UHGV virus genome: UHGV-1704341
Strand: one strand, 5' to 3'
From: a virus
Length of the DNA stretch: 12,853 nt
Each line of letters opens with the position of its first letter. Positions within the stretch are counted from its first letter, which is position 1. The notes beneath the pieces were generated by a model. The model was not told where the DNA came from. It did no database searches and saw nothing but the letters and a program-made list of their open reading frames with translations. The translations under genes and the position numbers were made by a program. Shown here piece after piece: positions 8,576-9,476 of the stretch.

Positions 8576-9052
8576 ATGCAGGTACTAAATCCCCAGCGTA
8601 AAGCTTTCCTTGATATGGTGGCCTGGTCAGAAGGAACGGATAACGGGCGACAACCGACACGTAACCACGGTTATGACGTTATTGTCGGTGGCGAACTCTT
8701 CACTGATTACTCCGATCACCCTCGAAAACTTGTCACGCTAAACCCGAAACTCAAATCAACAGCCGCAGGCCGTTATCAACTTCTTTCACGCTGGTGGGAT
8801 GCTTACCGCAAGCAGTTAGGGCTGACAGACTTCTCTCCTAAAAGCCAGGATGCTGTTGCATTGCAGCAGATTAAGGAGCGTGGCGCTTTACTAATGATTG
8901 ATCGCGGTGACATCCGTCAGGCAATCGACCGTTGCAGCAATATCTGGGCCTCATTGCCTGGCGCTGGTTATGGTCAGTTCGAGCATAAGACTGACAGCCT
9001 GATTGCAAAATTCAAAGAAGCGGGCGGAACGGTCAGAGAGATTGAGGTATGA
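8576..9052 (+). CDS. R: Endolysin, lambda R-type lytic transglycosylase
   Basis: 158-aa product nearly collinear with lambda R as I recall it (NPQRKAFLDM.AWSEGTDNGRQ.TRNHGYDVIVGGELFTDYSDHPRKLVTLNPKLKST.AGRYQLLSRWWDAYRKQLGL.DFSPKSQDAVALQQIKERGAL...). RBS aaggag inside the holin 3' end. Confidence 0.93.
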   Translation: MQVLNPQRKAFLDMVAWSEGTDNGRQPTRNHGYDVIVGGELFTDYSDHPRKLVTLNPKLKSTAAGRYQLLSRWWDAYRKQLGLTDFSPKSQDAVALQQIKERGALLMIDRGDIRQAIDRCSNIWASLPGAGYGQFEHKTDSLIAKFKEAGGTVREIEV

Positions 9053-9476
9053 GCAGAGTCACCGCGATTATCTCCGTTCTGGTTATCTGCATCATCGTCT
9101 GCCTGTCATGCGTGATAACGCCATCACCTACAAAAAGCAGCGCGATAAGGCCGCATCCATTATCGCTGACATGCAGAAACGTCAAAGTAATGTAGCTGAA
9201 CTCGATGCCAGATATACAAAGGAGCTTGCTGATGCTAACGCGACTATCGAAAGTCTTCGTGCTGATGTTTCTGCTGGTCGTAAGTGGCTGCACGTCAAAG
9301 CAGTCTGTCCGGACATGCATAAAACCACCGCCGCCTCCGGCGTGGATGATGCTTCCAGCCCCAGACTTACTGACACCGCTCAACGGGATTATTTCGTTCT
9401 CAGAGAGCGCATCGAAACCATAACTAACCAATTGCATGGCCTGCAAGAGTATGTGAGATCACAGTGTTCATATTAG
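9049..9476 (+). pseudogene. Rz: Rz (i-spanin) with frame disruption: N-terminal TM segment in frame 1 (9049-9198), periplasmic domain in frame 0 (to 9476)
   Basis: ATG 9049 overlaps the endolysin stop and encodes MSRVTAIISVLVICIIVCLS, then goes out of register and stops at 9196-9198. The lambda-Rz-like body (RDNAITYK.QRDK...SGVD..SPRL.DTA.RDYF.LRER) is in frame 0. Relative to lambda Rz, the codons for about WAVNHY are missing apart from 2 nt. Confidence 0.7.
9232..9423 (+). CDS. Rz1: Rz1 (o-spanin) lipoprotein, embedded in the +1 frame of Rz
   Basis: MLTRLSKVFVLMFLLVVSGCTSKQSV...KPPPPPAWMM: signal peptide with lipobox (VVSGC) and a proline-rich mature part, as in lambda Rz1. Appears intact. 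Confidence 0.75.
   Translation: MLTRLSKVFVLMFLLVVSGCTSKQSVRTCIKPPPPPAWMMLPAPDLLTPLNGIISFSESASKP

Follow-up and report, generated by a model that had tools for sequence, protein, structure and literature searches.

The i-spanin gene Rz is split between two reading frames by a 16-nt deletion in the 12,853-nt stretch of viral DNA analyzed here (the window), and the o-spanin gene Rz1 embedded within it is intact. The deletion does not stand alone, but is one of nine insertions or deletions (indels) private to the window in an otherwise nearly identical copy of a widespread Escherichia coli prophage. From the deletion, the split frames and the nine-indel pattern we infer a loss of spanin function in the gene as written and an artifactual origin for the break, for which the most probable source is corruption of the sequence, whether technical (an assembly or consensus error) or through in-silico manipulation or generation.

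The lesion was located by DNA alignment with the Rz genes of phages lambda, SfI and mEp460_4F5, which contains a single gap: the 16 nt GGCGGTTAATCATTAC are absent between window bases 9110 and 9111. The preliminary description had estimated from lambda that about 16 nt were missing, and the alignment gives exactly that number. Lambda, SfI and mEp460 retain these bases, as do all of the examined E. coli prophage copies that are otherwise identical to the window. Because they encode Rz codons W21–Y26, the reading frame is broken within the N-terminal transmembrane (TM) anchor, at codon 21 of a domain (NTMD) that comprises residues 1–24 in lambda Rz (PMC5295617).

Translation from the ATG at 9049 gives MSRVTAIISVLVICIIVCLS followed by CVITPSPTKSSAIRPHPLSLTCRNVKVM. 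The authentic TM anchor (codons 1–20, 9049–9108) is a 20-aa prefix held in common with the reference copy from E. coli ECONIH1, and the tail after MSRVTAIISVLVICIIVCLS—28 out-of-frame codons unrelated to Rz—ends with a TAG at 9193–9195, the stop being codon 49. The remnant in the second frame reads RDNAITYKKQRDK...SQCSY to a stop at 9474–9476 and is identical to reference residues 27–147, with neither a TM anchor nor a signal peptide; the one start codon available to it, the ATG at 9108, is a product of the deletion junction and has no Shine-Dalgarno sequence. Profile matches divide at the same point. Positions 1–23 of the PHROG family phrog_13 (Rz-like spanin) match the first frame and positions 27–153 the second (E=4.6e-54 on 9108–9476), and Pfam PF03245 matches the second fragment (E=3.6e-39), so that a periplasmic domain homologous to that of Rz is present on 9108–9476, and the TM anchor and periplasmic coiled coil of an i-spanin lie in two frames rather than in one continuous orf, as had first been described. 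There is no compensating indel downstream in Rz, the remainder of 9111–9476 being that of the reference.

Rz1 lies within Rz (9049–9476) and directly downstream of the holin and endolysin genes. It is preceded by AGGAG at 9220–9224 and has all of the features of an o-spanin, being a small lipoprotein with a signal peptide, a lipobox cysteine (MLTRLSKVFVLMFLLVVSGC, Cys20, with VVSGC), a proline-rich body containing PPPPP, and a match to PF06085. It is 71% identical to lambda Rz1, which is likewise embedded in the +1 frame with its lipobox cysteine at position 20 and a PPPPP motif, and it does not differ from the ECONIH1 copy. The endolysin gene ends in a TGA that shares bases with the Rz start codon (ATGA at 9049–9052); the exact endolysin protein is recorded in 3,125 blocks of the gene index, and in seven of the seven places shown it is followed by a single-frame Rz of 145–147 aa. 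The preliminary description of a disrupted Rz with an intact Rz1 in its +1 frame, downstream of an intact holin and endolysin, is thus borne out by the split frames, by the agreement of Rz1 with both PF06085 and the reference, and by holin and endolysin coding sequences identical to the reference. Directly after Rz/Rz1 is a DUF6979 gene (9515–9889; PF22399, E=7e-28), which occupies this place in SfI and in the examined prophage copies as well. Coordinates are given in Table 1.

Table 1. Lysis-cassette features, private indels and altered end of the window.
Feature	Position	Strand	Description
Lambda-family holin gene	8237..8572	+	Intact; PF05106 E=5.4e-28, phrog_126; identical to ECONIH1 WP_024946499
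R-like endolysin gene	8576..9052	+	Intact; phrog_90 E=1.9e-62; identical to reference
Rz 5' fragment	9049..9195	+	48 aa; codons 1-20 plus out-of-frame tail
Rz 3' remnant	9111..9476	+	Periplasmic coiled-coil domain, R27 to end; -1 frame relative to start codon
Rz1 o-spanin gene	9232..9423	+	Embedded in Rz in the +1 frame, intact; PF06085 E=1.2e-16
+13 nt, perfect tandem duplication	1143..1168	-	Private; 5' end of cI-like repressor gene
-61 nt	1373..1374	+	Private; cro-like ymfT frameshifted
+1 nt (C)	1672	+	Private insertion; ymfL frameshifted
+9 nt, perfect tandem duplication	2872..2889	+	Private; O-like replication gene, +3 aa in frame
-33 nt	8176..8177	+	Private; T-run of hairpin terminator between Q and holin lost
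-16 nt (Rz deletion junction, after 9110)	9110..9111	+	Private; GGCGGTTAATCATTAC absent, Rz frameshifted; no microhomology at junction
-56 nt	10387..10388	+	Private; HNH endonuclease gene frameshifted
-25 nt (after 10713) and substitution at 10705	10705..10714	+	Private; small terminase gene frameshifted
+16 nt, perfect tandem duplication	11908..11939	+	Private; large terminase gene frameshifted
Poly-G window end	12836..12853	+	T/C/A>G changes relative to reference

The entire window matches a prophage, related to SfV/SfI-type phages, that at least 25 complete E. coli chromosomes carry, among them those of ECONIH1, an ST648 strain, FDAARGOS_497 and DFL.5; the Rz/Rz1 cassette is that of this widespread lambdoid, SfV/SfI-like E. 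coli prophage. Rz/Rz1 is intact in the copies of ECONIH1 and of at least 24 further complete genomes (lysis protein WP_023908876.1), with Rz annotated as a single-frame 147-aa 'lysis protein'. These intact copies contain GGCGGTTAATCATTAC within one 147-aa orf, whereas in the window GGCGGTTAATCATTAC is missing and the frame is shifted. The absent 16 nt are the sole difference between positions 9000–9500 and their ECONIH1 equivalent, and the gene order holin, endolysin, Rz/Rz1, DUF6979 is shared. The Rz homologues examined read in a single frame and contain the 16 nt.

The Rz of phage SfI (YP_009147510.1), likewise one 147-aa orf containing GGCGGTTAATCATTAC, is 92% identical, and lambda Rz, with 76% DNA identity to the window, has a nearly identical TM anchor (MSRVTAIIS[A/V]LVICIIVCLS) and a PF03245 periplasmic domain. 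A natural in-frame difference of 21 nt from lambda Rz is common to the window, SfI and ECONIH1; the frameshifting 16-nt deletion is private to the window.

The ECONIH1 prophage (NZ_CP009859.1, 4837317–4850301) is the closest copy and was used as the reference for a base-by-base comparison over the 12.8-kb window. One substitution (at 10705) and nine private indels were found; 13 genes are identical to the reference and six are frameshifted (Rz, the cro-like gene, ymfL, the HNH gene, and the small and large terminase genes TerS and TerL). The nine comprise duplications of 1, 9, 13 and 16 nt and deletions of 16, 25, 33, 56 and 61 nt, and none occurs in any of five reference copies that were aligned over their full length. 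These five natural copies differ from one another by 1–89 substitutions and 0–1 indels. Seven of the nine indels have lengths not divisible by three, which together with the six frameshifted genes leaves no sign of purifying selection. Microhomology is 0–1 nt at all nine junctions, as for random breakpoints, which disfavors slippage between short repeats, and slippage between direct repeats was rejected on the same grounds; hairpin-mediated template jumping was also rejected, the deleted segments folding not consistently better than random segments. The isolated spanin defect implied by the preliminary description is therefore not what the window contains, as five genes besides Rz are frameshifted and a terminator has lost its T-run.

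Taken as written, the locus would yield a 48-aa membrane stub and a periplasmic-domain remnant that is either untranslated or cytoplasmic. The stub would keep most of the membrane anchor without the periplasmic domain, and an i-spanin could not be made. Nonsense mutations across the whole periplasmic domain of lambda Rz are lysis-defective, and disruption of the outer membrane needs both spanin subunits, a defect in either giving a spherical-cell phenotype (PMC5295617). Given the behavior of those nonsense mutants, it can soundly be inferred from the sequence that Rz as written is a null allele and that spanin function would be lost. Rz1 should still be produced from its own ribosome-binding site, but disruption of the outer membrane is not expected of Rz1 alone. 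The predicted spanin-null phenotype, in which lysis arrests at spherical cells when divalent cations are present at millimolar levels, is a textbook result of lambda genetics. The earlier proposal of a non-functional spanin pair thus stands insofar as Rz is null at the sequence level; it does not stand as a specific spanin defect in a prophage otherwise competent for lysis.

All of the frameshifts in the window share one cause with the Rz break. Sequence corruption is favored because the pattern is private, blunt and restricted to indels, shows no sign of selection, is the reverse of natural divergence, and is very difficult to square with natural decay; the Rz deletion would then be one of nine private, homology-independent events unaccompanied by independent substitutions. 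Since an indel-only spectrum with blunt junctions is unseen among the natural copies, it is doubtful that the Rz lesion exists in real DNA, and corruption is further supported by the G-overcall-like degradation of the window ends. Indels of 9–61 nt are, however, a rare output of common sequencing platforms, and a k-mer assembler requires reads across each junction; both points weaken an artifactual reading, as does the existence of defective prophages with a broken Rz, such as Rac in E. coli K-12.

The window alleles were also sought in other collections. When 5,426 complete E. coli genomes were searched by megablast with a 61-nt query spanning the Rz junction, the deleted junction was not found; the whole query was matched in 30 of the 5,426, always in two pieces that retain the 16 nt. 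Exact scans covered four of the nine junctions and gave no match for the Rz junction in GTDB genomes, IMG/VR or JGI metagenomes, for the TerL junction in GTDB genomes, for the cro junction in JGI metagenomes, or for the HNH junction in IMG/VR; the undeleted Rz junction, used as a positive control, is present in more than 120 viral contigs. The exact sequences of the Rz stub, the Rz remnant, the O-like protein with three additional residues and the truncated TerL are not recorded in the gene index, in which the endolysin serving as control is abundant; this absence, like that in the other collections, may speak only for genomes other than the source.

A real deletion in a decayed cryptic prophage, with Rz a pseudogene and its embedded Rz1 intact by chance, is a less likely account. 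Defective lambdoid prophages in which Rz is broken and the embedded Rz1 intact are already known: the cryptic prophage Rac of K-12 MG1655 has rzpR, annotated as a pseudogene, and within it rzoR, annotated as an intact CDS, and the window as written likewise combines an Rz that cannot be translated at full length, an intact Rz1 and the inactivation of other essential genes. The breakage of several further lytic genes fits a defective prophage, and a short-read contig, which the G-degraded ends suggest, would need read support at its internal junctions. The resemblance to Rac is incomplete, in that rzpR is truncated at its 5' end and lies in a prophage of long standing with heavy deletions, whereas Rz in the window is full length apart from the internal 16-nt deletion and the prophage is otherwise perfect but for eight indels. 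Moreover, nine indels with zero independent substitutions are the opposite of the divergence among natural copies, the blunt junctions are unlike those left by slippage between short repeats, and the tested alleles occur in no other genome searched. Were the DNA real, Rz would simply be a null allele of an ordinary kind within a dead prophage, in the configuration of Rac rzpR/rzoR, and induction, if any, would lead to spanin-defective lysis in a phage whose packaging and lytic switch are already dead.

If the indels are real, they might alternatively record a localized, homology-independent and indel-only process that riddled and silenced a resident prophage, with Rz as one of its targets, an explanation that we consider very improbable; such a process, for example break-and-rejoin or topoisomerase-type illegitimate recombination, would leave blunt deletions and short tandem duplications. 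Still harder to credit is a full-length functional Rz made by -1 ribosomal frameshifting or transcriptional slippage within 9108–9195, or a split protein, for although this interval is open in both frames and includes an A5 run (9132–9136), no X_XXY_YYZ slippery heptamer occurs in the frame of the Rz start, efficient slippage would need a longer run than A5, every homologue examined is single-frame with the 16 nt present, the remnant has neither a TM anchor nor a signal peptide and its junction ATG no Shine-Dalgarno sequence, and the lambda periplasmic-domain nonsense mutations are lysis-defective (PMC5295617). As a candidate programmed frameshift or recoded gene, the locus was rejected, having only the A5 run and a two-frame layout that is not conserved in homologues.

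Nothing new about spanins follows whether sequence corruption or real decay is the explanation, and if the indels are real it is their pattern, rather than the spanin, that would merit interest. The practical value of the analysis is as a quality flag: because every frameshift (in TerL, TerS, HNH, cro, ymfL and Rz) belongs to one anomalous indel set, the window should be treated with caution, and prophage gene content or function taken from it needs read-level confirmation.

Several of the altered sites have further features. In the cI-like (LexA-family) repressor gene (minus strand, 1143–1178) the original ATG (1178) now opens only a 9-codon orf, whose stop codon shares bases (ATGA) with a new in-frame ATG at 1165; a repressor of the same length, beginning MTS... 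in place of MKT..., could be made by reinitiation. The terminator near 8176/8177 is a strong hairpin (GAGGCCGCC-TACG-GGCGGCCTT TTTT) from which the deletion removes the T-run and downstream bases, and a terminator scan finds the site in the reference (11193–11214; region 11193–11245 of the reference copy) and not in the window; if this deletion is real, Q-dependent control of the lysis genes would weaken. The small terminase is of the P27 family, and the A>G substitution at 10705, 8 nt from the 25-nt deletion in its gene, yields jointly with that deletion a perfect GGGACGGC ×2 repeat (10703–10719); the two changes are probably a single complex event.

Both ends of the window (1–2 and 12836–12853) diverge toward G on the 3'-ward strand. 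The last 18 bases are poly-G-degraded, with a run of 12 G at the end, and an equivalent change on the opposite strand is seen at base 2, which suggests that the window is an entire contig of untrimmed reads whose ends are low-quality, G-overcall-like read ends. A scan of the window found no tRNAs and no Rfam families. Within the O-like replication gene, positions 2664–2727 form a 15/30-nt imperfect tandem repeat of TCTGACCCGTCAAAA (×4.3), which is also present in the reference, encodes SDPSKSDASK repeats, and is probably an iteron-like origin region.
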